Assembly: GCA_016185545.1 (NCBI GenBank) | Contig: JACPNJ010000005.1 | Span: forward strand, 167,754-231,753 | Length of the DNA stretch: 64,000 bases | Reading direction: 5' to 3' | Source of the DNA: Candidatus Yanofskybacteria bacterium | GTDB lineage: Bacteria > Patescibacteriota > Minisyncoccia > 2-02-FULL-40-12 > IGHO2-01-FULL-4-A | Part shown: one piece after another, positions 27,484 through 58,475 of the stretch | Numbering within the stretch: position 1 is the first letter of the stretch | How the letters are laid out: every line of letters starts with the position of its first letter | Notes under the pieces: model-generated | Told to the model about the DNA's origin: nothing | What the model saw: the letters and a program-made list of their open reading frames with translations, nothing else | Database searches by the model: none | Translations under genes and position numbers: made by a program

Positions 27484-28584
27484 ACGAGTCATCATTCTCA
27501 TTATATTAGCATGGTCTTCTCTGGCAATCTCGTATTTGCTTTTATTCAACTGGCTTGGATCATCCCGTACGAGACAGGTTGCGACCCTGTCGCAACCGTG
27601 CCTAGTTAGTTTATCATTATCTCCAACAGGGACACTCCGACCACCGGCCTTTTTTGTGTGTTTATTCGTCGTGTCTCGTACGGGATCATCCCTAGGAAAC
27701 ATATTGGATTTAAAACCGCATTCAACGCCCAATTGACTTAAAATCTTAAGAGTACTGTCATTGTAAGAATTGGCAGGATGGGCCATGTCCACGGGCGGCC
27801 TGCCGCAAACTCTTTGTATGTGTTCATAATTTTTTTGATACTCTTCTTGCTGTCGTTCAAAAGGAAGTTCGGCAAGCATCATGGGGTGTGAATATGAATG
27901 CAGTCCGATTACATGGCCTTGCCTATTTAAGTAAGCAAGGTTTTCATTTGACATCCATATGTTTTTAGAAAGATCGGCCAAATTCAACCCTTGGTCTTGA
28001 ATAATCGCATCCATAATTATTTCAAATTCCTCACGGCTTAACACGCGATCCCTAATCAAACGAAAGCGCATGTCATTGGTTGAGTAAAACGGGAAAGTCT
28101 TGGAATACCTTACCATATCGGTCTCTTCTAAAACTTTCCTGGCATTATTTCCAAATTTTGATTGAAAAATTTTATCAAAAAAAATATTGTAAAAGTCATC
28201 AATATCTTTAAAAAACTTAGAGCGAAAAACCCGATAAATTTCAAATTTGCCAAGGCCGCCCTCAAATACACTGGAATAGACGAACCAAAATGCTTTTAGG
28301 TTGTACTTGTCCAAAACCGGCAAGACAACATCAAATTGACATAATAGCCCATCATCCAGGGTTATGCAAACATCCCGATTGGTTAATTGGTTCGCCCCCA
28401 ATCGCTTAAGCCATTCTTTAGGATCAAGTATCCGATCTAATCCTACAAACATAAGAATGGCTTCAAAATCCGACATTGATATCGAACCTTGCCCTTTGTA
28501 ATGTTTCCGTTCGTCATGAAAATGATGGAACATTATCCCGTGAGCAACCGAACTGAGATATTTTTTTTTAGATAATTCGCTCAA
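27457..28584 (-). CDS. polysaccharide deacetylase (NodB-homology domain); the 3' ~230 nt of the ORF reads through elements B3 and A5
   Basis: ITLDDG NodB motif and HSYSHP His motif; the frame stays open through the repeat elements, so the true C-terminus is uncertain. Confidence 0.6.
   Translation of the reverse strand: MSELSKKKYLSSVAHGIMFHHFHDERKHYKGQGSISMSDFEAILMFVGLDRILDPKEWLKRLGANQLTNRDVCITLDDGLLCQFDVVLPVLDKYNLKAFWFVYSSVFEGGLGKFEIYRVFRSKFFKDIDDFYNIFFDKIFQSKFGNNARKVLEETDMVRYSKTFPFYSTNDMRFRLIRDRVLSREEFEIIMDAIIQDQGLNLADLSKNIWMSNENLAYLNRQGHVIGLHSYSHPMMLAELPFERQQEEYQKNYEHIQRVCGRPPVDMAHPANSYNDSTLKILSQLGVECGFKSNMFPRDDPVRDTTNKHTKKAGGRSVPVGDNDKLTRHGCDRVATCLVRDDPSQLNKSKYEIAREDHANIMRMMTRPVRGTTGN
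27564..27684 (-). repeat. family B element, copy B3
   Basis: cccgtacgagaca...tgtctcgtacggg; in tandem with A5. Confidence 0.8.
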
Positions 28585-29725
28585 TTTTTTTAATATCTAA
28601 ATAATCCTCGGAAGAAAAACTTAAACCCGAGGTAATTTTTTGAAAGCCCTCGTAAAAACGCGGCTCACTGACAAGGTTATGAATATTGGCAGTTGGTACA
28701 AGAATCAACATTTCATTATTAACCCATGCTTCTTTATTGGAGTCGTTGGAACCCATAAGAGCTTCGTGCAGTTTGTCGCCGACACGATCTCCAATGTATT
28801 TTATTTTTATCACAGCCCCAGAAGACCGCTGCTTCAGTCGTGGATGATTGGGTCTTCTGGGGCTGGATTCCGCCCCACGGTCAAGCCGCCAAGCTTGACT
28901 GTGGGTGATGGTACCACGGGCTTGGCCGTGGGGCTCCATTTTTTTTCCAGAGTAATATTTTTTTATAAATATACTGGCTAGATCTCCCAAGCGGATTGAC
29001 GGCATTTTCAAAATAAAAATTTCACCGCCCGAACAAAGCTGGGCCGCTTTCAGAGTCAAACTAACGGCTTGTTTTATGGACATGAGAAAGCGGGTCGCGT
29101 CTTTGTTGGTAACATTAATCGCGCCGCTGGCTTCTACTTGTTTTACCCACATCGGCAGTACTGAACCATCGGCCCAGGCAACATTGCCGAATCTTACACA
29201 GGCAAGCTTCATTTTATCTCCCAGAAAAAAACTGGAATTTATAAAAAGCTTCTCCATCATAAGCTTGGAAGCGCCAAGCACATTTAAGGGGTTGGCAACT
29301 TTATCCGTGGAAATGGCAATAATTTTTTCAACACCGGCGTGCAAAGCCGCGTCAATAATATTATGTGAACCGACAATGTTAGTTTTCATCGCTTCTGACG
29401 GATTATACTCGCAAAACGGAACATGTTTTAAGGCGGCGGCGTGAAAAACTATGTCTACATTTTTAAAAGCAAGATGTAAACGCTCTTGGTCTCTTATGTC
29501 TCCAATCAACATCCTTAAGTTTTTTGGGTAACGAAGCGCCTCCAATAGGTGGTATTGGCGTGTTTCATTTCTGGATAAAACCCTGATCTGCTTCGGCTTG
29601 GACTTTAAAAGCTGGCGAACCAGTTCTGCGCCAATACTACCAGTGCCTCCAGTTACCAAAATGGTTTTATTTTGAAACTCGTTAATCATAGAAAACAACT
29701 TAAAAATGCAAACCTCAAATCTCAA
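28568..29725 (-). CDS. UDP-GlcNAc 4,6-dehydratase (PseB/FlaA1/CapD-like), with an in-frame 43-aa insertion
   Basis: ILVTGGTGSIG...VLSRNE...HAAALKHVP...YIGDRVGDKLHEAL; 385 aa versus ~335 for homologs. Confidence 0.75.
   Translation of the reverse strand: MRFEVCIFKLFSMINEFQNKTILVTGGTGSIGAELVRQLLKSKPKQIRVLSRNETRQYHLLEALRYPKNLRMLIGDIRDQERLHLAFKNVDIVFHAAALKHVPFCEYNPSEAMKTNIVGSHNIIDAALHAGVEKIIAISTDKVANPLNVLGASKLMMEKLFINSSFFLGDKMKLACVRFGNVAWADGSVLPMWVKQVEASGAINVTNKDATRFLMSIKQAVSLTLKAAQLCSGGEIFILKMPSIRLGDLASIFIKKYYSGKKMEPHGQARGTITHSQAWRLDRGAESSPRRPNHPRLKQRSSGAVIKIKYIGDRVGDKLHEALMGSNDSNKEAWVNNEMLILVPTANIHNLVSEPRFYEGFQKITSGLSFSSEDYLDIKKIERII
28811..28939 (-). repeat. GC-rich triple-hairpin element inserted in-frame in a coding sequence
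   Basis: 129 nt at ~62% GC versus ~40% background; stems gccccagaagacc/ggtcttctggggc, cccacggtcaagc/gcttgactgtggg, ccacgg/ccgtgg. Confidence 0.6.
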
Positions 29726-30150
29726 AATGTAATTTAAAATTCCAAACTATTTTCTGCCTTTCATGGTTAGTACGCCAGCGCCAATAATTTTAGAAATTTC
29801 TTCGGCTTCTTTAAGCAATGGGTTAATTTGATTTCTTAAATTAGGCGTACTTTCAATGAGCAAAATCAACCAATATTTTGTCTCATTAGAACTCTTAAGA
29901 GCAATCTGAAAAAATTTTAAATAATCCAATTTTGAGCTAGCGGCTCGAGCTTCGAAAACGTTGGCTCCAACTGAAGTTGCAGATCGAATCAGTTGATCGG
30001 CTATCGCCCACAAATTCCTACTTTTTCTTACTTCTCCACAAAGTTTAATTATTGCTAAAGAAAAATCAATAAGCCGTTTATTAAATTGCATTTTAAAATT
30101 TACATTTTCATTTTGCATTTTGAGATTTGAATTTTGAATTGGGTAATTTT
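29703..30150. mobile_element. inverted-repeat-bounded module carrying a four-helix-bundle (23S rRNA IVS-type) protein gene
   Basis: AT-rich inverted-repeat arms with core caaatctcaaaatg (29703-29746; 30092-30150, reverse complement) flank the ORF. Confidence 0.55.
29747..30118 (-). CDS. four-helix-bundle protein (23S rRNA intervening-sequence protein family)
   Basis: WAIADQLIRSATSVGANVFEA...YLKFFQIALKSSNETKYWL is characteristic; the first 9 codons lie in the inverted-repeat arm, so the probable start is MQFNK (~30091). Confidence 0.7.
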   Translation of the reverse strand: MQNENVNFKMQFNKRLIDFSLAIIKLCGEVRKSRNLWAIADQLIRSATSVGANVFEARAASSKLDYLKFFQIALKSSNETKYWLILLIESTPNLRNQINPLLKEAEEISKIIGAGVLTMKGRK

Positions 30151-31270
30151 AACTATACTTTTTCAGGACATTAGCAAGGGTATGTGAAATATACTTAATA
30201 TCTTTCTCTTTCAATCCTATATAAAAAGGCAGGGCCAGCGACGACTGACTGACCGCTTCCGAAACAGGAAAGTCCCCTTCTTTGAAACCAAATTTGTCTT
30301 TATAAAAACTGAACAGGTGAATAGACGGCAAATATGGCTTAGTGCTTATTCCTATTTTTTGTAAATCTTCTATAACTCGGTTTCTATCGGTTTTCTTATT
30401 TTTTATCTTTATCACATACACAAACCAGGTAGGATTATTACCTTCGGCTATCTTTGGGGCCTCTACAAGACCAGAAAACGTCTCTAAATGCTTGCTATAC
30501 CAGCCAGCGAGCGCTTGTCTATGTTTTATCATAAAATCGAGCTTCTGCAATTGGGCAGTACCCAAAGCCGCACTCATTTCGTCCATTCTATAATTATATC
30601 CAAGATACTGATGGTCTAACCATTGCATATTCTCGGCTCGACCCTGATTGCGCAAGCTCGCACAAAGCTCATATATTTTCCTGTTGTTTGTTACGACCAT
30701 CCCGCCTTCAGCTGTGGTTATTTGCTTATTGGGGTAGAAAGCAAAAACAGCCGATTCGCCAAAAGTGCCGACCTTTTTCCCCTTATATTCAGCACAAATG
30801 CTTTCGCAGGCATCTTCAATTATTTTAAGTTTATGTTTTTTGGCAATTTTAATTATCGGGTCCATGTCCACCGCCTGGCCGAAAATATGGACTACCAAAA
30901 TGGCTTTTGTTCTTTTAGTAAGACGTTTCTCAATTTCGGCCGGTTCCATGTTATAAGTAACAGGGTCTATATCAACAAAAACCGGCTTCGCGCCGACATA
31001 CAAAATACAATTTGCTGACGCAATAAAAGAAAATGGGGTAGTTATCACTTCGTCGCCTGGACCGATACCAGCAGCGATCATTGCTAGATGCAGACCGGCC
31101 GTACCGCTTGATACGGCACAGGCGTATTTTGTGCCGATTTTTCTGGCAAACAACATTTCAAATTCTTTATACTTGGGGCCTAAGCTTAAATTTCCAGAAC
31201 GCAAAACTTCGAGAACTGTTCGTTCTTCTGATTTCGTTATGTAAGGTTTTGCCAGTTGATATTTAGACAT
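30149..31270 (-). CDS. DegT/DnrJ/EryC1/StrS-family PLP-dependent sugar aminotransferase
   Basis: AFYPNKQITTAEGGMVVTN (Lys/PLP motif); 373 aa. Confidence 0.8.
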   Translation of the reverse strand: MSKYQLAKPYITKSEERTVLEVLRSGNLSLGPKYKEFEMLFARKIGTKYACAVSSGTAGLHLAMIAAGIGPGDEVITTPFSFIASANCILYVGAKPVFVDIDPVTYNMEPAEIEKRLTKRTKAILVVHIFGQAVDMDPIIKIAKKHKLKIIEDACESICAEYKGKKVGTFGESAVFAFYPNKQITTAEGGMVVTNNRKIYELCASLRNQGRAENMQWLDHQYLGYNYRMDEMSAALGTAQLQKLDFMIKHRQALAGWYSKHLETFSGLVEAPKIAEGNNPTWFVYVIKIKNKKTDRNRVIEDLQKIGISTKPYLPSIHLFSFYKDKFGFKEGDFPVSEAVSQSSLALPFYIGLKEKDIKYISHTLANVLKKYS

Positions 31271-31303
31271 TTTGATATTTAAAAACCCAACTAAAAAGTC
31301 GGG

Positions 31304-31705
31304 TTATTTTAATTTACTCACTATCTTGGCCGGACATCCGAAAGCAATAACGTTTGGGGGTAAATTCTTGGTAACTAAACTGCATGCCCCAACGGTCGTA
31401 TTTCTTCCAACCCTTACTCCGGGCAATACGACACTATGGGCCCCGATTCTGCAACCTTCTTCCAACACGACTCTTCCCCTTTTCCCGTCTATTGTTGACA
31501 CTGAATATATATGGCAACCGCCACCGATCTCAACCCGATCTCCTATCTCAACCCCAGCCTGAGCGTTGATATAGGTAAAAGCCCCGATGTCAGTCTCTTT
31601 GCCCAATTTTAAGCCGGAAAGACCCTGAACCATCCAATTCCATTTAGTTAACTTGCCTTCTTTAATTATCGGTTTTTTCCAATTTTTAAATCTTTGTTTT
31701 GCCAT
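31304..31705 (-). CDS. left-handed beta-helix (hexapeptide) N-acetyltransferase (PglD/NeuD/LegH-like)
   Basis: hexapeptide repeats IGDRVEIGGGCHI...IGAHSVVLPGVRVG. Confidence 0.7.
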   Translation of the reverse strand: MAKQRFKNWKKPIIKEGKLTKWNWMVQGLSGLKLGKETDIGAFTYINAQAGVEIGDRVEIGGGCHIYSVSTIDGKRGRVVLEEGCRIGAHSVVLPGVRVGRNTTVGACSLVTKNLPPNVIAFGCPAKIVSKLK

Positions 31706-31716
31706 ATACCGTCCTC

Positions 31717-32874
31717 TTAGTATGTTATTTGCTTTGTTAATAATCTGGAGTTGATATTAATATTTTCCAGTATTTTTGCAACTCTCGGACCGGTCTTGCC
31801 ATCCCCCCAAGGATTTTTAATTTTCTTGAGCCGCTTTAAATATGCTTGATCATTAATAGATTTATAAACGGCTTTTTCTATTTCTTTCTTGTTATAGCCA
31901 ACGTCAATAACATTGGCACCGCGTTGCCGTCCCGTCTGACGAGTACCGACATTCACCACCGGGGTTTGGAAAGAAGACGACTCTATTATAGCGCCGCTTG
32001 AATTCCCCACCCAAACCGCGGTTTCCCGTTCCAGAGCAAGAAATTGCTTGTATTCCAAACTTGGAAATATATGAAAAAGCGGATTGTTTTTTTCTTTTTC
32101 TATGACACTTATAATTTTTCTGCCGCCGGCATCAGCGTGGGGATAAGTTATCACAACAGGCAAATTGAATTTTTTTACTGCCGCCAAGGTTTCTTCCATC
32201 TGCAGACCGGCGTTTTCTACTTCTTCGCTGACGGGGTGCTGAGTCACCAAAATAACATTCTTGCTTGGATCAAGATTCAATTTTTTAAAAAATTCCTTTT
32301 TTGTCGGCAGTTTCTCATTTAATATTACGTCCAATGCCGGCGCGCCCACAATATGGATTCTCCATTTTTCCTCGCCCATTTTTTGAATACGGTCAGCCGA
32401 TTCTTGAATCGCCGGAAAATGAATATGTGATAATTTCGTAATGGCGTGGCGGGCCAGCTCATCAACGGTGGAAGTTTTGTCGCCTCCATGAACATGGCCG
32501 GTGGGAATTCCAAGGTATAAGCAAGCCATGGCCGTGCAAAGCATCTCCGGCCTATCACCAAGAGTCAAAACAAAATCAGGCCTATTTTTGCTAAAAGCCC
32601 CTACCAATCTACTTAAAAAAACGCCTGTAAATTTCGTCATGCCCGGTCTGTCACCTGTTTCAAATCTTGCTTCTATATTTATTGCATTGGGAAATTCTTT
32701 TCTGACATACTGCACTGTTTCTCCAAATTCCGGCATCAGATGAGTCCCCGCGGCATAAACTTGTAAATCAAGCTGCTTGCTTCGGCTAATGGCCTTGAGT
32801 ATTGGGGTCATCAATCCAAAATCAGCGCGAGTACCGGATATATATGCAATTTTTTTCTTATTTTTTAAAATCAT
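31717..32874 (-). CDS. neuC: UDP-N-acetylglucosamine 2-epimerase (hydrolysing), NeuC/LegG-like
   Basis: YISGTRADFG...HVHGGD signature. Confidence 0.8.
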   Translation of the reverse strand: MILKNKKKIAYISGTRADFGLMTPILKAISRSKQLDLQVYAAGTHLMPEFGETVQYVRKEFPNAINIEARFETGDRPGMTKFTGVFLSRLVGAFSKNRPDFVLTLGDRPEMLCTAMACLYLGIPTGHVHGGDKTSTVDELARHAITKLSHIHFPAIQESADRIQKMGEEKWRIHIVGAPALDVILNEKLPTKKEFFKKLNLDPSKNVILVTQHPVSEEVENAGLQMEETLAAVKKFNLPVVITYPHADAGGRKIISVIEKEKNNPLFHIFPSLEYKQFLALERETAVWVGNSSGAIIESSSFQTPVVNVGTRQTGRQRGANVIDVGYNKKEIEKAVYKSINDQAYLKRLKKIKNPWGDGKTGPRVAKILENININSRLLTKQITY

Positions 32875-33913
32875 TTTTTGATATTAAAACATCGGCTTTT
32901 ATATCTTTTACTGCTTTACTGCCTAAAACTTTAAAATAATATTTTGGCTCAAGTCCGGTTCCAGGACGTTTTATGCCTATATTATTGGCAGTAAATAACT
33001 CCCCTCTTTTTGTATCCTTTATAGAAACAATGCTTTTTCTGGCTATGTTCCTTAATGAAAGTTCCTCTGGGGTTGGTTTTTTAACCCGAGATCCCAGTAT
33101 AGCTCCGGTATTTTTAATAGCCGAGATCATTTGACGCAGTTCTTCCGATTCAACAGAGGCATTGTGGTCGGGACCTGGCATATTTTTATCCAAGGTCATA
33201 TGCTTTTCTATTAAAACAGCACCTAGGGTAGCAGCCATAATCGGTACATTAATTCCCAAAGTGTGGTCGGAGTATCCAACTAGAACGCCGAATTTTTCTT
33301 TTAACGCGGCCATTGCCCGAAGATTTACATTTTCAGGCGGACAGGGATATTCAGTGGTGCAATGGAGGAGGATTATTTTATTGTTGCCAGTTTTTTTAAT
33401 ATGGCTTACGGCTCTTTTCACTTCTTCCGTGGTTGCCATTCCAGTGCTTATAATCATCGGCTTGCCTATTTTTGCGGCATATTCCAATACAGGAAGATTC
33501 GTCAAATCACCAGAGCCAAACTTAAAAGCCGGGACTCCTAAGTCATTAAGAAAACCAACGGATTCAAATCCTCCATGGGGAGTAGATAAAAAAATGATGC
33601 CAATTTTTTTACAATGGGCCATAATAGGTTGGTAAAATTTTTCGTTTAGTTCCAGTTTTTTGAGCATTGCCACCTGGCTTTCAATTTTTCCGATGTTTTT
33701 TATTTGGTAAGCAGCCATGGGAACGCTAGCCAGAGCTACTTGTTCGGCTTTGAAAGTTTCAAATTTTACCGCATCCGCGCCCGAATTTTTTGCGACATCA
33801 ATCAATTTAAGAGCCAGCTCAATAGAGCCATTATGATTAACCCCGGCTTCAGCAATAACAAAAACCGGTTTATTAAAACCGACTTCTTTATTTCCGATTT
33901 TTATCGTCTCCAT
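32858..33913 (-). CDS. neuB: N-acetylneuraminate-synthase-family nonulosonic acid synthase (NeuB/LegI/PseI) with a C-terminal SAF domain
   Basis: VFVIAEAGVNHNGS...DAVKFE. Confidence 0.85.
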   Translation of the reverse strand: METIKIGNKEVGFNKPVFVIAEAGVNHNGSIELALKLIDVAKNSGADAVKFETFKAEQVALASVPMAAYQIKNIGKIESQVAMLKKLELNEKFYQPIMAHCKKIGIIFLSTPHGGFESVGFLNDLGVPAFKFGSGDLTNLPVLEYAAKIGKPMIISTGMATTEEVKRAVSHIKKTGNNKIILLHCTTEYPCPPENVNLRAMAALKEKFGVLVGYSDHTLGINVPIMAATLGAVLIEKHMTLDKNMPGPDHNASVESEELRQMISAIKNTGAILGSRVKKPTPEELSLRNIARKSIVSIKDTKRGELFTANNIGIKRPGTGLEPKYYFKVLGSKAVKDIKADVLISKNDFKK

Positions 33914-33955
33914 AATTACCGATTACCAATTACTGATTACTAATTACCGGTTCCC
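33914..33955. repeat. array of five (N)ATTAC(C/T) heptamer direct repeats in the SDR-neuB intergenic spacer
   Basis: attacc-g-attacc-a-attact-g-attact-a-attacc. Confidence 0.5.
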
Positions 33956-34738
33956 CTATATCGTCCACCCGCCGTCAACGACAATATTCTGGCCGGTAAT
34001 ATAAGCGGAAGCATCGGATAACAAAAACAGCAGCGCTCCGGCAACATCTTCCTGTTTGGCCATGCGGCGCGGCGCCAATTTGACTTTCCCAACATATCTT
34101 TTTACAAACGATTCCGGCTGATTATCAAACACCCCCCCGGGAGATATGGCGTTAACCCGGATGCCGTGCGGCCCCAAGTAAGACGCAAGATATCTAGCCA
34201 GGTTGACGATGCCGCCCTTTATTGCCGCGTATTCCACCGGCATGGTCATATGCGTCCCTTCGTAAATTTCAAATTTAGGAGCGGCTATTCCATAGATTGA
34301 GCCCATCAATACGATACTGCCTCCCTTTTGTTCTTTCATTGTCCGCGACACTTCCTTGGTCATCAGGAAATATCCCCCCAAATGAGTTGACAGGTTGTCG
34401 CAAAAATCCTCATAAGTCACATCTTCAAACTTTCTCCCATAATTTTTGTTTCTGGGATAAGCGCAATTTACCAGAGCATCAATTCTTCTAAATTTTTTGA
34501 GAATATTTTTAATGGCTCTTTTAACGCTCGCCGGTTTGGTAATGTCGCATTGCTGAAATAAAATATTTTTATTTTTGGTATCACGGACAAGGCGGCCAGC
34601 GAGATTTTTGCCCGTTTTAGGATTGGTATCAATGATAACCACCTTGGCCCCGTTTTCGGCGCAAGCTCTGCAAAAAGCCGAGCCAATTAGACCGGCCCCG
34701 CCGGTAATAACACAAACTTTCCTCGCGATATTAAACAT
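33956..34738 (-). CDS. short-chain dehydrogenase/reductase
   Basis: VITGGAGLIGSA Rossmann motif. Confidence 0.7.
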   Translation of the reverse strand: MFNIARKVCVITGGAGLIGSAFCRACAENGAKVVIIDTNPKTGKNLAGRLVRDTKNKNILFQQCDITKPASVKRAIKNILKKFRRIDALVNCAYPRNKNYGRKFEDVTYEDFCDNLSTHLGGYFLMTKEVSRTMKEQKGGSIVLMGSIYGIAAPKFEIYEGTHMTMPVEYAAIKGGIVNLARYLASYLGPHGIRVNAISPGGVFDNQPESFVKRYVGKVKLAPRRMAKQEDVAGALLFLLSDASAYITGQNIVVDGGWTI

Positions 34739-35678
34739 TGTTTTGTTTTAACGCTAGGGCATTTTTCAAATCCCCTAGCGCCTCGTTAAAATTACTATGC
34801 TTCACGCGTTTTAAAACTTTTTTAATAAAAAACGATAGCTCGTTAAGATACATTTTATTTCCGTCAACTTTAACATTTATAAACGATTCTCTTTTCGGCA
34901 ATCTTACGGCTATTTCGTTTTTTAAACTGTCCCAAGTGGCTGTTCCCTTGTCTCCGATTATTTCGCAGTATCTCCGACCCGGATATCGAAGGTAATCTTG
35001 GTGAATTGAAACCACGGTTCCTGTTTTTGACTCAAATACTCCTTCGGCTATATCCTCCGATTTTATATTAAACATTCCCGCTCTTTTTACCAGTCCGGCT
35101 TTAAATTTTATATTTTCATCAATCAGCCAAGCCGGATAATTTATTTCGTGAATCAGGTCCAGCACTACGCCTCCGCCCCTTTGGGCATCATACGAATATA
35201 TTTTTTTATAATCTCTTTTTCGCCAAGTCCTTAAATCTTGGCCGACTGAAGCTCTTATAAAAACCGGCCGGCCGATTATTTTCTTTTTTATTATCTTTTT
35301 TAATTCAATAATCGGTTTATGAAACTGGAGGCAATAGCCGACAAAAAATACCGGCGTCCTGCTTAGAAGTTTTTTTATTTCATTTGCTTTTTTCAAATTA
35401 TGAAATAGCGGTTTCTCAACAAATATTCCTTTTGGCTTTTGCTTTAGGCATTTAATTATCGCGTCAGCGTGTTTGTATGTTTCATTGGTTATGAAAAATA
35501 CATCGGCCGTATTTTTGAAAAATTCATTTTCTGATTTAAAAATTTCGTCCTTTAAAAATAAATCAGTCCTTTTGGTTAGAATTTTAACCTTGACCCTTGG
35601 ATAGAGTTTTTTAATATTCCGGTAATGCCTTCCACCGATTGAACCGAATCCAATTATGCCAATAGTTTTTATCATCAT
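34731..35678 (-). CDS. Gfo/Idh/MocA-family oxidoreductase
   Basis: N-terminal IGIIGFGSIGGRH NAD-binding motif. Confidence 0.7.
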   Translation of the reverse strand: MMIKTIGIIGFGSIGGRHYRNIKKLYPRVKVKILTKRTDLFLKDEIFKSENEFFKNTADVFFITNETYKHADAIIKCLKQKPKGIFVEKPLFHNLKKANEIKKLLSRTPVFFVGYCLQFHKPIIELKKIIKKKIIGRPVFIRASVGQDLRTWRKRDYKKIYSYDAQRGGGVVLDLIHEINYPAWLIDENIKFKAGLVKRAGMFNIKSEDIAEGVFESKTGTVVSIHQDYLRYPGRRYCEIIGDKGTATWDSLKNEIAVRLPKRESFINVKVDGNKMYLNELSFFIKKVLKRVKHSNFNEALGDLKNALALKQNNV

Positions 35679-35680
35679 CT

Positions 35681-35768
35681 AAATTCAAAAAGCAAATCTC
35701 AAATCTCAAAATCTAATTTATAATTAAAAACTTTCATTTTGGATTTTGAGATTGAAATTTTGAATTTT
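35681..35768. repeat. 'caaatctcaaaat' AT-rich palindromic hairpin (empty copy of the 4HB-module inverted repeat)
   Basis: gcaaatctcaaatctcaaaatc ... gattttgagattg. Confidence 0.65.
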
Positions 35769-36476
35769 TTTCTCTATTTTCTTTTTGTGGGCAAATATAG
35801 TTTCCGCCAAAATCCAATCTTCTATGCCGTCCAAATCAATTGAGCGCCATTTCGGACAGACAACGCCGCGGGTATCGGCATTAATAAATTTTCTGGTTTT
35901 TATAAATTCATTGATTCTTATCATATAGACCATACAGCCATTGAGCAAATAACCGGCGGGCCAAACCTGCCTATTGGTGCTTTCTTTTTCAATTTTATTT
36001 GCCAAAATTAATTTGCCTTGGTCATCTAAATGATAAAGACGCGGATGCGTGTCACATATTGTACAGACGGATCTGACCTTGGAATCTAGCATCCGTTTCC
36101 AGCATTTTTTGATATCGGATATTTCTCTCAATGGCGAAGTTGTTTGTAAAAGAGTTATTATATCCGGCTCATAACCATCCTCTTCTTTTAGTCTTTTAAG
36201 TAGAAGTAAAACGGCGTCAACGACAGGCGATTTATCACCAGCCAACTCCTTGGGCCTTAAAAACGGCACCTCGGCGCCGTATTTTCTGGCCACTGCGGCG
36301 ATTTTCTCATCTTCTGTATCTACAACAATCCTATCAAACAAGCCGGTTTCCCTGGCTTGCTCTATGGCATGTGCAATTAGCGGTTTACCATGAAAAATTT
36401 TGATATTCTTGCCGGGTATGCCTTTAGACCCGCCTCTGGCCGGAATAATGGCTAAATTTTTTATTGATTTTTGCAT
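35724..36476 (-). CDS. neuA: acylneuraminate cytidylyltransferase (CMP-nonulosonic acid synthetase, NeuA/LegF/PseF-like)
   Basis: AIIPARGGSKGIPGKNI...TSPLR; the last ~14 codons are encoded by the palindromic repeat. Confidence 0.8.
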   Translation of the reverse strand: MQKSIKNLAIIPARGGSKGIPGKNIKIFHGKPLIAHAIEQARETGLFDRIVVDTEDEKIAAVARKYGAEVPFLRPKELAGDKSPVVDAVLLLLKRLKEEDGYEPDIITLLQTTSPLREISDIKKCWKRMLDSKVRSVCTICDTHPRLYHLDDQGKLILANKIEKESTNRQVWPAGYLLNGCMVYMIRINEFIKTRKFINADTRGVVCPKWRSIDLDGIEDWILAETIFAHKKKIEKKIQNFNLKIQNESF

Positions 36477-36482
36477 AGCTAA

Positions 36483-37706
36483 TTATTTGACTTGAAATTT
36501 TCCGTTTTCAAATAGATAAACCTTGTCATACACATCATTAAGCGGTTTCTCATAACGGCTGATATTTAAAACGGTTCCGTCTCCGTATTTCAAATACAGT
36601 GTCCTATTCAGTCCCAATAACGGCTCCAGAATTCTGTTATAAAAAATATTTGATTTAATCTGATAAAATTTGTCATCACTCAAAACTTCCGATCTTTTAA
36701 CGCTATACATCCATTCCGGATTGAGTTTATTCTGACAAGATATTTTCATGGCCTTCTTATTGTAAGAAATCAGGCAATTTTCCAAAAAACCGGAATGGGT
36801 AAAACCGAAAATAATGTCTTCACTGCCAATCGGTAATCTTTTGGCCGAAAAAGCGATCTTAACGGCATCAAAAATCTTTCGCGGCCTAAAAGAATAAAAG
36901 GTTCTTTTAAATGTATGGACCGCATCAAAATACGGCCCAACCTCCTCAATATTCATCTTACCCCACCTATTATGACGATAAATAATTAAGTTGGTGTTAC
37001 GGTTGGAACTAATGCTTTTTATCAAACTGGTCATAGCAATTATAGTGGGCAGGAATCCGGGGTCGGCAATAATAAACCAAATAGCGCCCTTTTTTGAAGA
37101 AATCGCGTTTCTAATCTCTTTTTCCAATAATTCATTTTTTGCGGGAATGATTTTATTCTGGGTCAACTTTTCATCAAAATTGTTTATAAAAAATTGAGGC
37201 GGCATTTCTTTGAAATAATCCTCATAAAAACCGGCTCGCGCTTCACCCATGGCCGTTTTAAATAATCGGGAAAAAACATAAGAATTTAATCCCATGGCAT
37301 AAGCCGGTACGGAAATCCAGGAAAACGGAGAAAAGACGCACTGAATCTTATCAAGATTTTTCATAAGAAAAAATTCGCTGATTGAAGTATCCTCAATGAA
37401 TTTAAAAGACGCTAGGTTAAGGAAATCTCGTTCATCTTTCTCCGCCGGATGCGGCTTATAATAAAAGTCATAACCCGCGCATTCTTTTCTAATGTAATCG
37501 AGGCATTTGTTTTCAATGTCTATGTAATTTTTTTGGTCTAATTCGGGAAAAAGACGAAAATCAAGGCCCATAAAAATGACCATTTTCTTTTCGTCTTTTC
37601 CTTGGCCTAAATTGTTAAAAACAGGATAGGGCGTTTTAAAAACGGCAATATTATTTTTTGCTGTGTTCAGTTTTTTCAATTTTCTGATGTCTTTGGCTAA
37701 AAACAT
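36483..37706 (-). CDS. hypothetical GT-B-like transferase with a KPHP motif (paralog of 23514..24725)
   Basis: CLDYIRKECAGYDFYYKPHPAEKDERDFLNL. Confidence 0.45.
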   Translation of the reverse strand: MFLAKDIRKLKKLNTAKNNIAVFKTPYPVFNNLGQGKDEKKMVIFMGLDFRLFPELDQKNYIDIENKCLDYIRKECAGYDFYYKPHPAEKDERDFLNLASFKFIEDTSISEFFLMKNLDKIQCVFSPFSWISVPAYAMGLNSYVFSRLFKTAMGEARAGFYEDYFKEMPPQFFINNFDEKLTQNKIIPAKNELLEKEIRNAISSKKGAIWFIIADPGFLPTIIAMTSLIKSISSNRNTNLIIYRHNRWGKMNIEEVGPYFDAVHTFKRTFYSFRPRKIFDAVKIAFSAKRLPIGSEDIIFGFTHSGFLENCLISYNKKAMKISCQNKLNPEWMYSVKRSEVLSDDKFYQIKSNIFYNRILEPLLGLNRTLYLKYGDGTVLNISRYEKPLNDVYDKVYLFENGKFQVK

Positions 37707-37715
37707 GAGTAGAAT

Positions 37716-37800
37716 AATTTAAACCTCAAATCTCAAAACTCAAAATTTAAATTTTGAATTTTAAATTACATTTTGAGATTTGAGATTTGCATTTTGAATT
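37716..37800. repeat. 'caaatctcaaaat' AT-rich palindromic hairpin (second empty copy)
   Basis: aacctcaaatctcaaaactcaaaattt ... cattttgagatttgagatttgcatttt. Confidence 0.65.
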
Positions 37801-37876
37801 CATTAAAAATACGGCTCTTTTAATGCCGTATTAATTTACCATAAAAACAAGGGTATGGCTAGATCAAAATATACTC

Positions 37877-38839
37877 TTACTCCAGGGTATTTTTTCTCCT
37901 TAATTTGGCCTCAATGGGTTTTTCTGAATCCAATAAAACTTTTGCGGGTTGGCCCAAATAAATAGGTAAATCCCTAAGCTGTACCGTCAATCTGCCCAAA
38001 CCGTATAATTCAAGACTGGCCGCTTGGTCTGTCCCCCACATAGCCCTATCCAGCGTAATGTGCCGCTCAATGACGCAGGCGCCTAATGAGGCGGCGACCA
38101 ATGAAGAATATACCCCGACCTCATGACCGGAGTAGCCGATATGAACCTTGGGGTATTTTTTAATCAGCCGGGGAATATTGGCTAAATGCAATTCATTGTC
38201 TTTACCGGGGTAAGTGGAGGTGCAATGCAAAATTACAAGATTTTCTTTCCCTAAAAATTTAACGATTTTTTCAATTCTCTCATCGTCGGTCATACCAACC
38301 GAGACTATAATAGGCTTACCCTTGGCTTTGATATGGGCCATCAGATTCCTGTCCAGGTTACATGCAGAAGCGATTTTGTAACAGGGCAGGTCAAACTGTT
38401 CAAGAAAGTCAACGCTTCCTTCATCCCATGGTGAAGCAAACCATAAAATTCCTTTCTGCCGGCAATATCGGTCAATTTCCCGATATTCTTTTTGCGTCAG
38501 CTCCAAAGCCCATTTAAGATCCCCGTTCGTAGAATTTTCAAAATCGGAATTGGTCAGTCGCTTGACGGCTTCATCGGAAAGGACTCCTCGTCTAACGGCA
38601 TTTCTCAACACGCCTTCGTTAACTTGGCGCGGCTTTGCCAATTCTTCAGCGGTATAGACAACCGGCACGGTTCTTTTTTGAAATTTAACCGCGTCACATC
38701 TCTGCGCAACTGCCCCGTCAATAAGCTTTTTAGCAATCTCAATATCGCCGTTATGGTTTATTCCAATCTCCGCAACTATAAAAACCGGCTGGTTGTATCC
38801 AATCTCTTTGCTTCCTATTTTCAACATCTCGGCTCCCAA
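37877..38839 (-). CDS. NeuB-family (sialic-acid-synthase-like) enzyme without a SAF domain
   Basis: VFIVAEIGINHNGD...DAVKFQKR. Confidence 0.7.
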   Translation of the reverse strand: MGAEMLKIGSKEIGYNQPVFIVAEIGINHNGDIEIAKKLIDGAVAQRCDAVKFQKRTVPVVYTAEELAKPRQVNEGVLRNAVRRGVLSDEAVKRLTNSDFENSTNGDLKWALELTQKEYREIDRYCRQKGILWFASPWDEGSVDFLEQFDLPCYKIASACNLDRNLMAHIKAKGKPIIVSVGMTDDERIEKIVKFLGKENLVILHCTSTYPGKDNELHLANIPRLIKKYPKVHIGYSGHEVGVYSSLVAASLGACVIERHITLDRAMWGTDQAASLELYGLGRLTVQLRDLPIYLGQPAKVLLDSEKPIEAKLRRKNTLE

Positions 38840-38975: not shown

Positions 38976-39554
38976 TTATAGTTCACTTTCTACCAAAGAA
39001 CAGAGCAGATGTATAATCATCTGGTGAACCTCTTGGATTAAGGCGGTATTGGTTGCTGGCACGATAATTGCAACATCAACCAGCGATAATAGATTTTTAG
39101 TTTTTTGACTGAATAATCCGATTGATTTGGCACCATGATTTTTAGCGGCCAGGAAAGCATTATAAATATTTAAAGAATGACTGCTACCGGCAGTTACATC
39201 ACTCGTGGTTAATCCTATTACCAAATCACCTGGACAACATAGCGCTTCAATCTGTCTTGAAAAAACCAACTCAAATCCATCATCATTGCTTTGGGCCGTC
39301 AAAATTGAGGAATTGGTAGTTATGGCAATAGCGGGAATAGCTCGCCGGTTTTTTTCAAACTTGCAAACCAACTCAGCTGCAAAATGTTGGGCTTGAGCTG
39401 CCGAACCGCCGTTGCCTAAAATTAAAACCTTTTTACCTGAATTGATAGTCTTTTTAATAAGTTCATGGGCATTTAAAATCTGCTGCTTAAATTCTAACGA
39501 TTCGCTTATTTTCTGATATAAAAGTTTCCTTTGAACCAAAAGCTCATCCAACAT
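38976..39554 (-). CDS. gmhA: SIS-domain sedoheptulose-7-phosphate isomerase-like
   Basis: VLILGNGGSAAQAQHFAAEL... Confidence 0.7.
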   Translation of the reverse strand: MLDELLVQRKLLYQKISESLEFKQQILNAHELIKKTINSGKKVLILGNGGSAAQAQHFAAELVCKFEKNRRAIPAIAITTNSSILTAQSNDDGFELVFSRQIEALCCPGDLVIGLTTSDVTAGSSHSLNIYNAFLAAKNHGAKSIGLFSQKTKNLLSLVDVAIIVPATNTALIQEVHQMIIHLLCSLVESEL

Positions 39555-40934: not shown

Positions 40935-40955
40935 AACCGGCATAAAACCGGTTTT

Positions 40956-43291: not shown

Positions 43292-43873
43292 CTATTGAGG
43301 GGAAAGCGTAAACGGATCTACTCCCCGACACTCAAGTATGAAATTTGCAAAATCTCGAATGGCCCCATTACCACCGGGACGTTCAGAAATAAAATGGGCA
43401 ATGTCTTTAACAATCTTCTCGGCAGATATTGGCGCTGCCCTTAAAGCCACGCGCCGTAGCAATGGAACGTCAACCAGATCATCTCCCATAAAGGCGGCAT
43501 CATCAAAAGATAGTCCAACCTCGGCTAAATATTCCTCAGCAGCAATGATTTTTTTGGTCCCCCCCATGCCAGTATACAATTTTACGTGATGCCAACCTCC
43601 ATCACCAGGATTTTTTTCCGAAGATGGTAGTTTATTAAGTTTTGCCACTACATCAGAAATGGCTTTAGCAGACTCGTCTTTCTCGTTAGTAATGAAACAA
43701 ACTCTAATACCTATGGCTCTAAGCAAAGAGGTCCCCTGTCCATCATAATAGCTACGCCATTTTCCTTTGTGTGTGGCGCCTTCCAAAACTTGATTGTTGG
43801 TAAAAACACCATCCACATCCGAAAAAAATATTTTGACTCTCTCAACTAGCTTTTTATCTGCATTAAAAACCAT
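43292..43873 (-). CDS. KdsC-family HAD phosphatase (sugar-acid phosphate phosphatase)
   Basis: FFSDVDGVFT HAD motif I; YrbI/KdsC-like layout. Confidence 0.65.
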   Translation of the reverse strand: MVFNADKKLVERVKIFFSDVDGVFTNNQVLEGATHKGKWRSYYDGQGTSLLRAIGIRVCFITNEKDESAKAISDVVAKLNKLPSSEKNPGDGGWHHVKLYTGMGGTKKIIAAEEYLAEVGLSFDDAAFMGDDLVDVPLLRRVALRAAPISAEKIVKDIAHFISERPGGNGAIRDFANFILECRGVDPFTLSPQ

Positions 43874-45201: not shown

Positions 45202-46035
45202 CTACCAAGAAGTAAACCCACCATCTAAAACCAAAGTAGTTCCGGTCATATATGAAGCCGCCCCGGAAGCCAGGAAAAGTATTGCTCCGTTATATTCATC
45301 TACATTGGCCATTCTACCAAGAGGTACGCGCTGACTGTAACTTTCTATGAATTCTTTATCGCTGGCCGGATTGAGAACTCCACCGAACGCGACTGCCACC
45401 ACTCTTATCCCGCGAGGAGCCCATTGTATGGCTAAATCTCGGGTCATTGCCACAAGAGCGGCCTTAGAGGCACCATAAGAAGCGTCTTTAACGAATTTAT
45501 TTTTACCAATTTTTTGCCTATAATCGTAAATCCTTTGATCGGGAGCAACCAGGGCATATTGTGATACAATATTTATAATTACTCCGTTTTTTTCTGCCTC
45601 AATAATTCTTTTGCCAATTATCTTTGCGCAAATCGCCGCGCCGGTCACATTCACTTTAAAAACTCGCTCCCACAAATCAATGGGATATTCCTCAAAAGCT
45701 TCTCCCGCGCCCTGTGGATTATTGGGCGATGCTTTCCAGCCGGCATTATTAATTAGTATAGTGGGAATGCCCCACTGTTTTTCTATGGCTATTAAACCCT
45801 TTTTTACGCTATTCTCGCTGGTGATATCTACTTTTAAAAAAAGAAGCGGATACTCTCGGGCTAATTCTTCCAATTCTTGGTTTGGTTTTTCAGTTATATC
45901 AAATGTTGCCACCTTTGCGTTCGCCTGAACCAAGGTTTTGGCAAATTGACTACCCAGTTTGCCAAGACCGCCGGTTATAATAACAACTTGCCCGTTCAAA
46001 TCAAACAGATTGAAAGGATATGCCAACTCTCTCAT
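45202..46035 (-). CDS. short-chain dehydrogenase/reductase
   Basis: VIITGGLGKLGSQ Rossmann motif. Confidence 0.7.
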   Translation of the reverse strand: MRELAYPFNLFDLNGQVVIITGGLGKLGSQFAKTLVQANAKVATFDITEKPNQELEELAREYPLLFLKVDITSENSVKKGLIAIEKQWGIPTILINNAGWKASPNNPQGAGEAFEEYPIDLWERVFKVNVTGAAICAKIIGKRIIEAEKNGVIINIVSQYALVAPDQRIYDYRQKIGKNKFVKDASYGASKAALVAMTRDLAIQWAPRGIRVVAVAFGGVLNPASDKEFIESYSQRVPLGRMANVDEYNGAILFLASGAASYMTGTTLVLDGGFTSW

Positions 46036-46616
46036 AATAAGCCCTCCTTCGTTGATGATTTAAAAGCAAAGCTAGAAGCGTACCATTCTACATATTTACA
46101 CCAAGTTCCCTGTGCTGTCATTAAAATCTCAATTGCTTCAGACACAGCTCCGCATCCGCCTTTAGATTTTGTGATTATATGGGCAATTTTTTTATTTTCA
46201 TTTGAACCGTCTTCTGGCGTCATGGCGACACCGACCTGTTTCATGACGTGCAAATCGCACCAATCATCACCAATATACATTATGTTTTCTGGACTTGCGT
46301 CATATTCTTTTTTCATAAACTCAAAAAAATCTATTTTTTGTTCGATGAGTTCCGCTTTAAATACAAGGCGCACGCCGGTAACTTCTTTGCTACGCCTGAT
46401 AACCGCAGCGCATTTGCGTCCGGTAAACCAAGCAATTTTTAAACCGCTTCTCATGGCTACCATCATCCTTGGTTTGTCTTTTGCCCAAAAAGCTTTGGTT
46501 TCTTCAGGATGGTCACTCAGATAAATCTTACCGTCCGTGAGCACCCCATCTACATCTGTAACAATTACCCTGATTTTCTTTAATTTATTCTTAAGATTTT
46601 GGGCGTTAAGTTCCAC
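46032..46616 (-). CDS. KdsC-family HAD phosphatase
   Basis: VIVTDVDGVLTDGKIY...IGDDWCDL. Confidence 0.7.
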   Translation of the reverse strand: MELNAQNLKNKLKKIRVIVTDVDGVLTDGKIYLSDHPEETKAFWAKDKPRMMVAMRSGLKIAWFTGRKCAAVIRRSKEVTGVRLVFKAELIEQKIDFFEFMKKEYDASPENIMYIGDDWCDLHVMKQVGVAMTPEDGSNENKKIAHIITKSKGGCGAVSEAIEILMTAQGTWCKYVEWYASSFAFKSSTKEGLL

Positions 46617-47918: not shown

Positions 47919-48635
47919 TTATTTCCAATAGGTTACATCGTAACTACAGAGAATGAGTTTACCAAGATCTGGCTTATATTTGTATTCCGTAACACCGCAA
48001 TTTGCCGGGTCGGTTTTAGAAATCAGCCCAGTCTTCTCAAACGATAATTCTTCGTTTACCATGCGAAAAGCATCAGTTGTCCTTGCATGGCTTACAACTA
48101 ATACTTTTTTATCTGGATAATCTAATCGCAGTTTAACTAAAAACACGTTAATCCGCGTACACACATCCGCAACGCTTTCGCCACCAGGCGGCACCGCAAA
48201 CATGGGATGGCTATTATCCCAATAATTCTTTCTCCAAGGAAAATGTTTTCGTACTTCTTCTGCCAGCATATTCCGCGTATAGCCGCCCGCGCGTTCGCGA
48301 AGCAATATATCAGAATGTGCCCGTGATTCAATTTTGACACGATCTCTTCCATAACCTTCTAAAATATACTTGACCGTTTCCTCGGCACGAACATATCCCG
48401 AATGAAATACGACATCAAACAGACCATATGCCTTTCGTAATGCTACCCCTGTCTGACGCGCTTGTTCAATACCACGCTCAGTAAGCGAAATGTTTTCATC
48501 AGAAAGTTCGCCTGCGACAATTTTTTCGGCTTGATCTTTAAAGAAAACTCCCTTCTTTTTAGTATTACGGGCAGATTCGGCATGCCGCACTAAAACTAAT
48601 AATTTTGGGAAATTAATTTTTTTCATTTTTTCCAC
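47919..48635 (-). CDS. histidine-phosphatase (phosphoglycerate-mutase-like) family protein
   Basis: LVLVRHAESARN RHG motif. Confidence 0.65.
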   Translation of the reverse strand: MEKMKKINFPKLLVLVRHAESARNTKKKGVFFKDQAEKIVAGELSDENISLTERGIEQARQTGVALRKAYGLFDVVFHSGYVRAEETVKYILEGYGRDRVKIESRAHSDILLRERAGGYTRNMLAEEVRKHFPWRKNYWDNSHPMFAVPPGGESVADVCTRINVFLVKLRLDYPDKKVLVVSHARTTDAFRMVNEELSFEKTGLISKTDPANCGVTEYKYKPDLGKLILCSYDVTYWK

Positions 48636-52510: not shown

Positions 52511-52523
52511 AAAGGAACTGGCA

Positions 52524-58451: not shown

Positions 58452-58475
58452 GAATTAAAAGATGGAAGCTCGGGA

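Follow-up and report, generated by a model that had tools for sequence, protein, structure and literature searches.

We analysed a window of 64,000 nucleotides from a Candidatus Yanofskybacteria bacterium (assembly GCA_016185545.1, contig JACPNJ010000005.1, positions 167,754 to 231,753), a member of the candidate phyla radiation (CPR); all coordinates given below are those of this window. Essentially the whole of it is filled by a glycan island, whose minus-strand genes run nearly unbroken in the list of open reading frames (ORFs) from ~57 kb down to 21 kb with a few plus-strand inserts, and which harbors three synthase genes of the NeuB family together with three cytidylyltransferase genes. 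A first-pass annotation had proposed here a NeuC/NeuB/NeuA-like core of six genes, further NeuB-family genes at 37877 and 56035 and further cytidylyltransferases at 48623 and 50761. Each of these genes was recovered at these coordinates as an intact minus-strand ORF with a strong family match in hidden Markov model (HMM) scans, and the E-values of these matches, 1e-17 to 1e-132, exclude chance matches. While the span originally proposed for the system, 28568-38839, takes in the first gene module and one of the extra synthases, the system described here reaches to 57078. On the evidence assembled below, the island probably holds three distinct sugar-acid pathways, two of them phosphatase-linked and uncharacterised. 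The three synthases and the three cytidylyltransferases are the following:

32858..33913, minus strand: NeuB1, a NeuB/LegI-type synthase with SAF domain (TIGR03569, 438.6 bits, above the cut-off of 399.65)
37877..38839, minus strand: NeuB2, a NeuB-family synthase lacking the SAF domain (Pfam NeuB, 221.6 bits)
56035..57078, minus strand: NeuB3, a NeuB-family synthase with SAF domain and a serine at the Arg314 position (TIGR03569, 296.5 bits, below 399.65)
35724..36476, minus strand: NeuA1, a synthetase of cytidine monophosphate (CMP)-nonulosonate from the CTP_transf_3 family (PseF model, 161 bits, below 205.7)
48623..49429, minus strand: NeuA2, a divergent CTP_transf_3 cytidylyltransferase (Pfam CTP_transf_3, 62.9 bits)
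50761..51513, minus strand: NeuA3, the CMP-sugar-acid synthetase of the NeuB3 cassette (PseF model, 151.5 bits, below cut-off; the solved relatives are synthetases of CMP-N-acetylneuraminic acid, CMP-Neu5Ac)

The synthases are only 33-37% identical to each other, whereas each shares 55-67% identity with orthologues in other phyla that have their own conserved gene context, so that they are old paralogues rather than duplicates. NeuA1 and NeuA3 are 35% identical, and NeuA2 can barely be aligned with either. In the numbering of Neisseria meningitidis NeuB, all three synthases keep Glu25 and Glu234 for catalysis, His215 and His236 as metal ligands, and the lysine and serine residues that bind phosphoenolpyruvate (PEP). 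Since these metal, PEP and catalytic residues are retained, all three synthases should be active. One could suspect that the additional NeuB and NeuA genes do nothing distinct, being redundant or decaying duplicates or the outcome of a chimeric assembly. The window does stem from a metagenome-assembled genome (MAG), the one point found in favor of this explanation, which the identity values and the intact catalytic residues effectively refute. The copies are ORFs with full-length homologues, NeuB2 and NeuB3 are 100% identical to proteins of a 339-kb contig annotated as a Candidatus Yanofskybacteria MAG, G+C is even over the window (0.36-0.44 in 2-kb windows), and an independent sister MAG, GCA_016181175.1, encodes proteins 86-88% identical to those of the window in the same order, keeping the three synthases, the three cytidylyltransferases, the sugar isomerase (SIS) gene and the genes for the transketolase-like enzyme, the aldehyde dehydrogenase (ALDH) and the short-chain dehydrogenase (SDR) introduced below. 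Since this sister MAG keeps the layout, the arrangement is real, under selection and no assembly artefact.

To the phylogenetic placement of the copies a rough neighbour-joining tree contributes, the references of which were four solved-structure sequences only, transcribed from HMMER alignments. NeuB1 groups with Bacillus subtilis SpsE and the NeuC-adjacent NeuB of a Giovannonibacteria genome, and a DNA-level search of Escherichia coli reference genes with NeuB1 gave no match. NeuB2 and NeuB3 fall into two separate, well-populated clades apart from N. meningitidis NeuB, Campylobacter jejuni PseI and B. subtilis SpsE. Both miss the equivalog cut-offs of the NeuB model TIGR03569 (399.65 bits) and the PseI model TIGR03586 (340.25 bits), with 209.5 and 187.6 bits for NeuB2 and 296.5 and 227.7 bits for NeuB3, and are hence assigned to NeuB-fold synthases outside the NeuB and PseI equivalogs. 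The equivalent of Arg314, which contacts the sugar in N. meningitidis NeuB, is absent from both clades: NeuB2 has no SAF domain at all, and NeuB3 carries a serine at this position. At the position of Phe288, both have a conserved lysine followed by basic neighbours, a candidate phosphate site as far as residues can indicate one. Because phosphatases of the HAD/KdsC type are linked to NeuB2 and NeuB3 by adjacency or fusion, these two synthases are more likely to condense sugar phosphates, and what they make may differ from the classical amino nonulosonic acids of nine carbons.

These results bear on the proposal that the island makes more than one nonulosonic acid. It holds insofar as several ulosonic acid pathways are indicated; the extra synthases, in contrast, are not further nonulosonate routes of the NeuB, LegI or PseI type, being below the equivalog cut-offs and in clades of their own. 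Nor did the extra copies turn out to be housekeeping enzymes for 3-deoxy-manno-octulosonic acid (Kdo) or 2-keto-3-deoxynononic acid (Kdn). No copy reaches a KdsB cut-off, the best KdsB-family scores being 51.4 bits for the gene at 48623 and 49.7 bits for that at 50761 against cut-offs of 155-281; KdsA is of another fold, and no KdsA-type match was obtained in the scans of the window. They are instead members of two widespread, uncharacterised, phosphatase-linked cassettes. Both extra CMP-sugar synthetases that had been announced are present as well, with the one at 48623 an outlier much more divergent than that at 50761.

The first of the three modules, a string at 28568-36476, contains the following genes besides NeuB1 and NeuA1:

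28568..29725, minus strand: UDP-N-acetylhexosamine (UDP-HexNAc) 4,6-dehydratase of the PglF/PseB/CapD class (Pfam PF02719 Polysacc_synt_2, 298.5 bits)
30149..31270, minus strand: DegT-family sugar C4 aminotransferase (PseC model, 337 bits, and LegC model, 288 bits, both below cut-off)
31304..31705, minus strand: minimal hexapeptide-repeat acetyltransferase of 133 amino acids (NeuD/PglB/VioB subfamily, 66.5 bits, C-terminal part only)
31717..32874, minus strand: hydrolysing 2-epimerase of the NeuC/LegG type (TIGR03568, 392.6 bits, above 235.9)
33956..34738, minus strand: PtmA-like SDR adjoining NeuB1 (NF006619, 319 bits, above 255; PtmA model, 229 bits, below 350)
34731..35678, minus strand: Gfo/Idh/MocA oxidoreductase in a PtmF-like position (weak matches to inositol and UDP-N-acetylglucosamine (UDP-GlcNAc) 3-dehydrogenases; Pfam GFO_IDH_MocA on identical Logan contigs)

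The six core genes, that is the dehydratase, aminotransferase, acetyltransferase, 2-epimerase, NeuB1 and NeuA1 genes, form one co-directional, partly overlapping string that is kept in the sister MAG. The first three are contiguous within it, and none of them exceeds an equivalog cut-off; the dehydratase scores 79.6 bits with the LegB model. The core had been described as legionaminic/pseudaminic-type, of which the legionaminic-type 5,7-diamino nonulosonate stands. Pseudaminic acid does not fit: neither a PseG nucleotidase nor a PseH GNAT acetyltransferase was matched among the scanned ORFs of the window, and the pseudaminic equivalogs are all missed (PseB 288 of 407.75 bits, PseC 337 of 423.5, PseI with NeuB1 299 of 340.25, PseF with NeuA1 161 of 205.7). 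Since the six enzyme classes occur in one string, NeuC and NeuB1 pass their models and the Pse models fail, we accept module 1 as a UDP-GlcNAc-based legionaminic-type route, in which the gene set is observed and the D-glycero-D-galacto configuration of the product is presumed. In this route, UDP-HexNAc would be processed successively by the 4,6-dehydratase, the C4 aminotransferase, the N-acetyltransferase and the NeuC-type hydrolysing 2-epimerase, and the resulting sugar would be condensed with PEP by NeuB1 and activated by NeuA1.

The same genes could be read as two pathways, with NeuC, NeuB1 and NeuA1 making Neu5Ac from UDP-GlcNAc, and the dehydratase, aminotransferase and acetyltransferase making a bacillosamine-type hexose that is used directly in the glycan. 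The models that NeuC and NeuB1 pass are indeed named for UDP-GlcNAc 2-epimerase and N-acetylneuraminate synthase, though TIGR03569, the NCBI model in the latter case, does not separate LegI from NeuB; the acetyltransferase, moreover, is truncated at 133 amino acids and lacks the N-terminal domain of PglD and NeuD, unlike PglD or LegH. We regard this division as quite improbable in view of the single conserved string, of the recurrence of the trio NeuC-NeuB-dehydratase in Giovannonibacteria, another CPR lineage (67, 55 and 44% identity), and of NeuB1, which is nearer to B. subtilis SpsE (1vli, also its best solved structure) than to N. meningitidis NeuB and keeps the Arg314 equivalent. NeuA1 has its best solved structures in NeuA (9ftb) and the N. 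meningitidis CMP-Neu5Ac synthetase (1eyr).

When compared to the UDP-GlcNAc-based legionaminic pathways of Legionella, Acinetobacter and the B. subtilis sps genes, the legionaminic-type string shows the same six enzyme classes, in one string and with the NeuC and NeuB models passed. As in the Leg clusters of Vibrio and Plesiomonas, a PtmA-like SDR and a Gfo/Idh/MocA protein stand beside the synthase and the CMP synthetase, here between NeuB1 and NeuA1. The string departs from the known sets in that its acetyltransferase is reduced to a hexapeptide-repeat core of 133 residues, no gene for a PtmE-type nucleotidyltransferase adjoins it, neither the dehydratase nor the aminotransferase reaches an equivalog cut-off, a gene for a four-helix-bundle protein interrupts it, and the host belongs to the CPR. 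Module 1 is an additional member of a known pathway, whose stereocentres the SDR and Gfo genes could alter. The interrupting gene, 29747-30118, lies between the dehydratase and aminotransferase genes (TIGR02436, 88.6 bits, above 24), and the sister MAG has none there. A polysaccharide deacetylase gene (27457-28584) overlaps the end of the dehydratase gene, and two methyltransferase genes (within 22550-26107) lie downstream of module 1; their products could give free-amine or methylated derivatives of the sugar.

The second module is built around NeuB2 and includes:

38976..39554, minus strand: GmhA-like SIS sugar-phosphate isomerase (TIGR00441, 158.9 bits, below 209.45)
45202..46035, minus strand: SDR2, a cassette-type SDR with YxxxK motif, overlapping the KdsC gene by 4 bases
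46032..46616, minus strand: ulosonate-phosphate phosphatase of the KdsC/YrbI family (TIGR01670, 128.4 bits, above 106.95; DxDG motif)

For NeuB2, the public annotation sets the start at an ATG 12 bases downstream, giving 316 amino acids. Its clade is marked by the signature KFQKRT, SPWD, GYSGHE and a basic C-terminal KLRRK tail, and a pattern scan located it in at least 594 genome contigs from many phyla. SAF-less 'environmental' NeuBs were noted in a large NeuB survey, which leaves their function uninvestigated. The Leptospira protein 6ncs, SAF-less as well and the best solved match of NeuB2, was considered as an orthologue and rejected, as it lies outside the NeuB2 clade in the tree.

We counted gene contexts in 80 retrieved NeuB2-type loci. 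The synthase gene has a KdsC/HAD phosphatase gene as its immediate neighbour in 46 of them, and in 54 such a gene occurs somewhere in the locus; a GmhA-like SIS gene occurs in 24, within 5 kb in 21. Compact cassettes recur, for example in the order NeuB2-Gfo-NeuA-SDR-KdsC-SIS, and one protein (P0119) is a fusion of NeuB with the GmhA-type SIS domain, followed by genes for a HAD protein, an SDR and a cytidylyltransferase. In the window the SIS gene and NeuB2 are neighbours, and the KdsC-family phosphatase with its overlapping SDR is found 6 kb off. Of the window proteins, this phosphatase is the one best matched by the phosphatases that adjoin NeuB2-type genes, and SDR2 shares 36-46% identity with SDRs from NeuB2 and NeuB3 cassettes. 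As judged from gene context, the phosphatase linkage supports a sugar-phosphate-condensing route for NeuB2. The isomerase has its best solved match in C. jejuni GmhA (1tk9, E 3.7e-37) and conserves the GmhA His/Glu/Gln/His residues and substrate motifs; the catalytic and zinc residues of GmhA are likewise kept by all but three (L037, L067 and L082) of 25 aligned SIS proteins from other NeuB2-type loci. In its phosphate-binding loop the window protein carries an insertion of six residues (four in the sister MAG), which was rejected as a family trait, being confined to the two Yanofskybacteria and found in none of these 25 proteins.

From these genes, namely NeuB2 (37877), the GmhA-like isomerase (38976), the KdsC-type phosphatase (46032) and an SDR, a second route may be drawn. 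The isomerase would deliver an aldose phosphate, NeuB2 would condense it with PEP, and the phosphatase would free the acid before activation with CMP. Because of the GmhA linkage and of the manno configuration that NeuB-family enzymes use, the most economical substrate would be D-glycero-D-manno-heptose 7-phosphate, giving a ten-carbon acid, and we propose it tentatively, as a suggestion from gene context that falls somewhat short of an even chance. Another aldose phosphate, or no such route, are further alternatives.

Several points weigh against a heptose-based route. In the DNA examined, a SIS gene is missing from most NeuB2-type loci (56 of 80), and the gene content lets no one cytidylyltransferase be assigned to NeuB2. 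The window also encodes a GmhB-like HAD-IIIA phosphatase (5775-6299), a sugar-1-phosphate nucleotidyltransferase with some similarity to HddC (14559-15272), a 4,6-dehydratase (15666-16619) and an Fcl-like reductase (17329-18258). Since these genes are present, the GmhA-like gene could serve a nucleoside diphosphate (NDP)-heptose pathway instead of NeuB2, and together with it they could form an NDP-(6-deoxy)heptose pathway. In the known Bacteroides Kdn route, a synthase is paired with a KdsC-family phosphatase. NeuB2 may, by the same pairing, be a synthase of Kdn 9-phosphate or Neu5Ac 9-phosphate that acts on mannose 6-phosphate or N-acetylmannosamine 6-phosphate and gives a nine-carbon product, with the GmhA-like protein being either a hexose-phosphate isomerase or part of a separate NDP-heptose pathway of the island. 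The loci without SIS gene and the window genes that could use heptose 7-phosphate fit this assignment too, and the KDN-9-P phosphatase model (NF058599) is matched by the phosphatase at 46032 (90.7 bits) and by a second HAD phosphatase at 43292 (78.9 bits). These scores, however, are far under the cut-off of 180 bits; the linked SIS proteins are, with the three exceptions, canonical GmhA by their residues, and the NeuB-GmhA fusion and the 21 loci with a GmhA-like gene within 5 kb, in compact cassettes without genes for a heptose kinase or nucleotidyltransferase, speak against it. We therefore hold a nine-carbon product of NeuB2 for possible and rather unlikely.

The third module is a cassette around NeuB3 and NeuA3, to which the following genes are assigned:

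51698..52510, plus strand: SDR3, an SDR with YxxxK motif and matches in the cassettes
52485..54434, plus strand: transketolase-like enzyme dependent on thiamine diphosphate (ThDP) (NF004559, 395 bits, below 488; best solved structure human transketolase)
54558..56015, plus strand: ALDH (broad ALDH matches of ~380 bits, all below cut-offs; catalytic Glu and Cys motifs intact)
43292..43873, minus strand: HAD1, the second HAD phosphatase (NF058599, 78.9 bits, below 180; Pfam Hydrolase_3)
49422..50753, minus strand: GT-B-fold protein of 443 amino acids without Pfam family, between NeuA3 and NeuA2 (AlphaFold2 model, mean pLDDT 92)

NeuB3 homologues occur in Vampirovibrio, Chloroflexi, Gottesmanbacteria and others. 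The gene set NeuB(SAF)-[HAD]-SDR-ALDH-cytidylyltransferase-transketolase-like is present in three NCBI genomes, Vampirovibrio and two further assemblies, and the window proteins are 63-67% (NeuB3), 50-58% (ALDH), 58-63% (NeuA3) and 42-55% (transketolase-like) identical to the cassette orthologues. Among 80 metagenome loci, the SDR gene comes next, within 2 kb, in 34 of the 35 contigs that extend downstream of the NeuB3 orthologue by 1.5 kb or more, and in 17 of the 18 contigs with at least 6.5 kb the SDR, ALDH, NeuA and transketolase-like genes all follow downstream in the same direction. The NeuB3 cassette exists and is conserved; in the window it is split into divergent units (50761-57078). 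The phosphatases of NeuB3 cassettes find their best window match in HAD1, whose DxD motif is intact, and a NeuB3 homologue (P0176) is a NeuB-SAF-HAD fusion.

With human-type short transketolases, the transketolase-like protein shares the three-domain architecture, the ThDP and metal ligands and the donor-side histidines: H37, H77, H110, D155, N185, H258 and E366 (human numbering) are kept in all 24 orthologues (the window protein and 23 others). It differs from the pentose phosphate transketolases in that the residues holding the phosphate and the aspartate orienting the acceptor are replaced in every orthologue, R318 being deleted, S345 changed to Asp, H416 to Leu or Tyr, D424 to Pro and R474 to Ser, Ile or Pro, and in that its gene lies inside a CMP-sugar-acid operon. 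Because the ThDP, metal and donor-side residues are kept and the phosphate-binding and acceptor residues replaced, we consider the protein a catalytically active ThDP enzyme whose substrate channel has been rebuilt, and not a pentose-phosphate enzyme, as far as conserved residues can tell. That a housekeeping transketolase gene stands here by chance was rejected on account of the conservation of the cassette and of the residue replacements.

A third route would then comprise NeuB3 (56035), the HAD phosphatase (43292), the SDR (51698), the transketolase-like enzyme (52485), the ALDH (54558), NeuA3 (50761) and the GT-B protein (49422). NeuB3 would form an ulosonate phosphate, from which the HAD enzyme would remove the phosphate. 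The SDR would oxidise the penultimate hydroxyl to yield a terminal HOCH2-CO- ketol, as transketolases recognise; the transketolase-like enzyme would cleave off this two-carbon ketol unit, and the ALDH would convert the new terminal aldehyde to a carboxylate. The shortened dicarboxylic 3-deoxy-2-ulosaric acid would finally be activated by NeuA3, so that each enzyme of the cassette has a part in the scheme. We infer this chemistry, which ends in a side-chain-truncated dicarboxylic ulosonic acid, from the enzyme classes and consider it doubtful, if worth stating. Against it speak the HAD gene, which is found within 2 kb in only 8 of the 18 full NeuB3 cassettes, and the gene order, with the transketolase-like gene last and not between SDR and ALDH.

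Without chain cleavage, the cassette could give a full-length ulosaric acid, if SDR and ALDH oxidised the terminal CH2OH, freed by the phosphatase, to a carboxylate and the transketolase-like enzyme only supplied an unusual aldose precursor; in a variant of this idea, the ALDH merely detoxifies an aldehyde by-product. The order NeuB-HAD-SDR-ALDH-NeuA, with the transketolase-like gene last, matches such an order of reactions, and the ALDH is catalytically intact by its motifs. A precursor-supplying transketolase, in contrast, should keep the residues that bind sugar phosphates, which none of the 24 orthologues retains. Primary alcohols are rarely substrates of classical SDRs, and the same type of SDR occurs in NeuB2 cassettes that have no ALDH. 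A full-length product appears unlikely to us for these reasons.

The GT-B-fold protein at 49422, its fold identified from the model only, gave Foldseek matches to PglA, TagF, WaaA and 2-epimerases (E ~1e-7). It is 37% identical to the product of a gene beside the Vampirovibrio cassette and has ~300 unnamed homologues; the predicted structure makes it a candidate transferase for the cassette sugar.

With the Kdn and Neu5Ac 9-phosphate routes (Bacteroides thetaiotaomicron Kdn, animal NANS/NANP), NeuB2 and NeuB3 have in common that they are phosphatase-linked and that a CMP synthetase follows. In contrast to these routes, NeuB2 lacks the SAF domain and is linked to, or fused with, a heptose-phosphate isomerase of the GmhA type, NeuB3 comes with an SDR, an ALDH and a modified transketolase, and the KDN-9-P phosphatase model is not passed. 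As in the Kdo pathway KdsD-KdsA-KdsC-KdsB, there are a SIS isomerase, a PEP-condensing synthase, a KdsC-family phosphatase and a CTP_transf_3 cytidylyltransferase; here, however, the synthase has the NeuB fold and not that of KdsA and DAHP synthase, the isomerase resembles GmhA and not KdsD, and no KdsB model is passed. By analogy with Kdn, animal Neu5Ac and Kdo, modules 2 and 3 would follow a phosphorylated ulosonate logic with partners not described there. The equivalogs they fail to reach are NeuB, PseI, KDN-9-P phosphatase, KdsB, GmhA and transketolase. Our search of the literature found no description of the NeuB2 or the NeuB3 cassette and, on nonulosonic acid pathways in CPR/Patescibacteria, only a passing remark on Peregrinibacteria. 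A CMP-linked alpha-keto sugar acid with a backbone of more than nine carbons, as heptose 7-phosphate and PEP would give, has been reported; it carries two N-acetyl groups and one O-acetyl group, and the passages of that report available to us assign no genes to it.

In the resulting scheme, three independent routes to CMP-activated 2-keto-3-deoxy sugar acids would feed one surface glycan that depends on an ABC transporter. Three caveats apply to the scheme as a whole. Gene context and conserved residues are the basis of every substrate assignment; the SDR, Gfo and NeuA1 genes lying between NeuB1 and NeuB2 may be part of either module; and the tree is without LegI of C. jejuni or Legionella pneumophila, the Kdn 9-phosphate synthase of B. 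thetaiotaomicron and animal NANS.

The window further encodes an exporter and a candidate transferase:

57189..59291, minus strand: Wzt/Wzm ABC exporter of the glycan island (HMM scans)
36483..37706, minus strand: protein of 407 amino acids, a candidate sugar-acid transferase (36% identity over 400 amino acids to a paralogue at 23514-24725)

The paralogue has a sub-threshold Pfam match to alpha-2,8-polysialyltransferase, and both proteins are candidate sugar-acid transferases. The proteins at 36483, 49422 and 26227 found nothing significant in Pfam, NCBIfam and the PDB sequences. Apart from the exporter, the remaining genes of the window also belong to glycan biosynthesis, with a GT-C-like PMT_2 protein, GT2, GT4 and GT9 glycosyltransferases, methyltransferases, radical SAM enzymes, an acetolactate-synthase-like ThDP enzyme, the GmhB-like phosphatase, the sugar-1-phosphate nucleotidyltransferase and the dehydratase and Fcl-like genes. 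No RNA genes were detected by tRNA and Rfam scans of the window.

The best solved structure for NeuA2 is 6oew, named 'cytidylyltransferase', which aligns over the N-terminal half only; NeuA2 is kept in the sister MAG, and a similar gene occurs in only 2 of the 80 NeuB2-type loci. The sister MAG (L173) lacks the block 44037-48635, which comprises an APH-type kinase, SDR2, the KdsC phosphatase, an EamA-like membrane protein and a histidine phosphatase; it has instead, between its NeuB2 and NeuA1 genes, a pair of HisF-like and glutamine-amidotransferase genes that might serve to form an acetimidoyl group. The combination of kinase, EamA-like protein and cytidylyltransferase recalls the lic phosphocholine system. 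One of the sugars is probably modified by the products of the aminotransferase, Gfo-type oxidoreductase and radical SAM genes that lie at 39705-43237.

A second sugar-tailoring set is located at 2092-20746 (genes 2092, 3107, 9094, 12356 and 19445), with a ketopantoate-hydroxymethyltransferase-like protein, a B12-binding radical SAM enzyme, an acetolactate-synthase-like ThDP enzyme, a SPASM radical SAM enzyme and a sugar C-methyltransferase. Judged from this set, the glycan may also contain a sugar that is branched or C-methylated. An IS-type transposase gene (rve integrase core and HTH domains) lies inside the island at 6962-7921, and the adjoining 8.4-9.1 kb contains no ORF of 110 amino acids or more. 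Outside the window, in the Sungiibacteriota sequence CP066690.1 (L006), a reverse transcriptase and a bAvd-like accessory gene (16954-18357), the hallmark of a diversity-generating retroelement, are found a few kb downstream of the NeuB pair.

In recognition, phage attachment and immune evasion, sialic-acid-like sugars have a governing role, and their known bacterial repertoire consists essentially of Neu5Ac, Kdn, legionaminic and pseudaminic acid and their relatives. The two cassettes are conserved across phyla, among them Chloroflexi, Acidobacteria, Melainabacteria, Saccharibacteria and Parcubacteria, and each provides a concrete enzymatic hypothesis. They may contain the genes that are missing for the higher-carbon CMP-ulosonic acids recently detected by mass spectrometry, and the NeuB3 cassette may reveal a new type of reaction for the transketolase fold. 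That both unstudied pathways run as drawn, with NeuB-GmhA-KdsC leading to ten-carbon 3-deoxy-ulosonic acids and NeuB-HAD-SDR-transketolase-like-ALDH to a truncated, CMP-activated ulosaric sugar, is a speculation that we regard as improbable, and it is just as improbable, though a real possibility, that both cassettes make sugar classes not yet described. Since a very small CPR genome gives more than 60 kb to one elaborate surface glycan, our analysis suggests that the cell surface is central to the presumed episymbiotic lifestyle of the Yanofskybacteria host. If the proposed pathways are true, ulosonic acids both longer and shorter than usual, together with a legionaminic-type sugar, would decorate the surface of this reduced-genome CPR bacterium.

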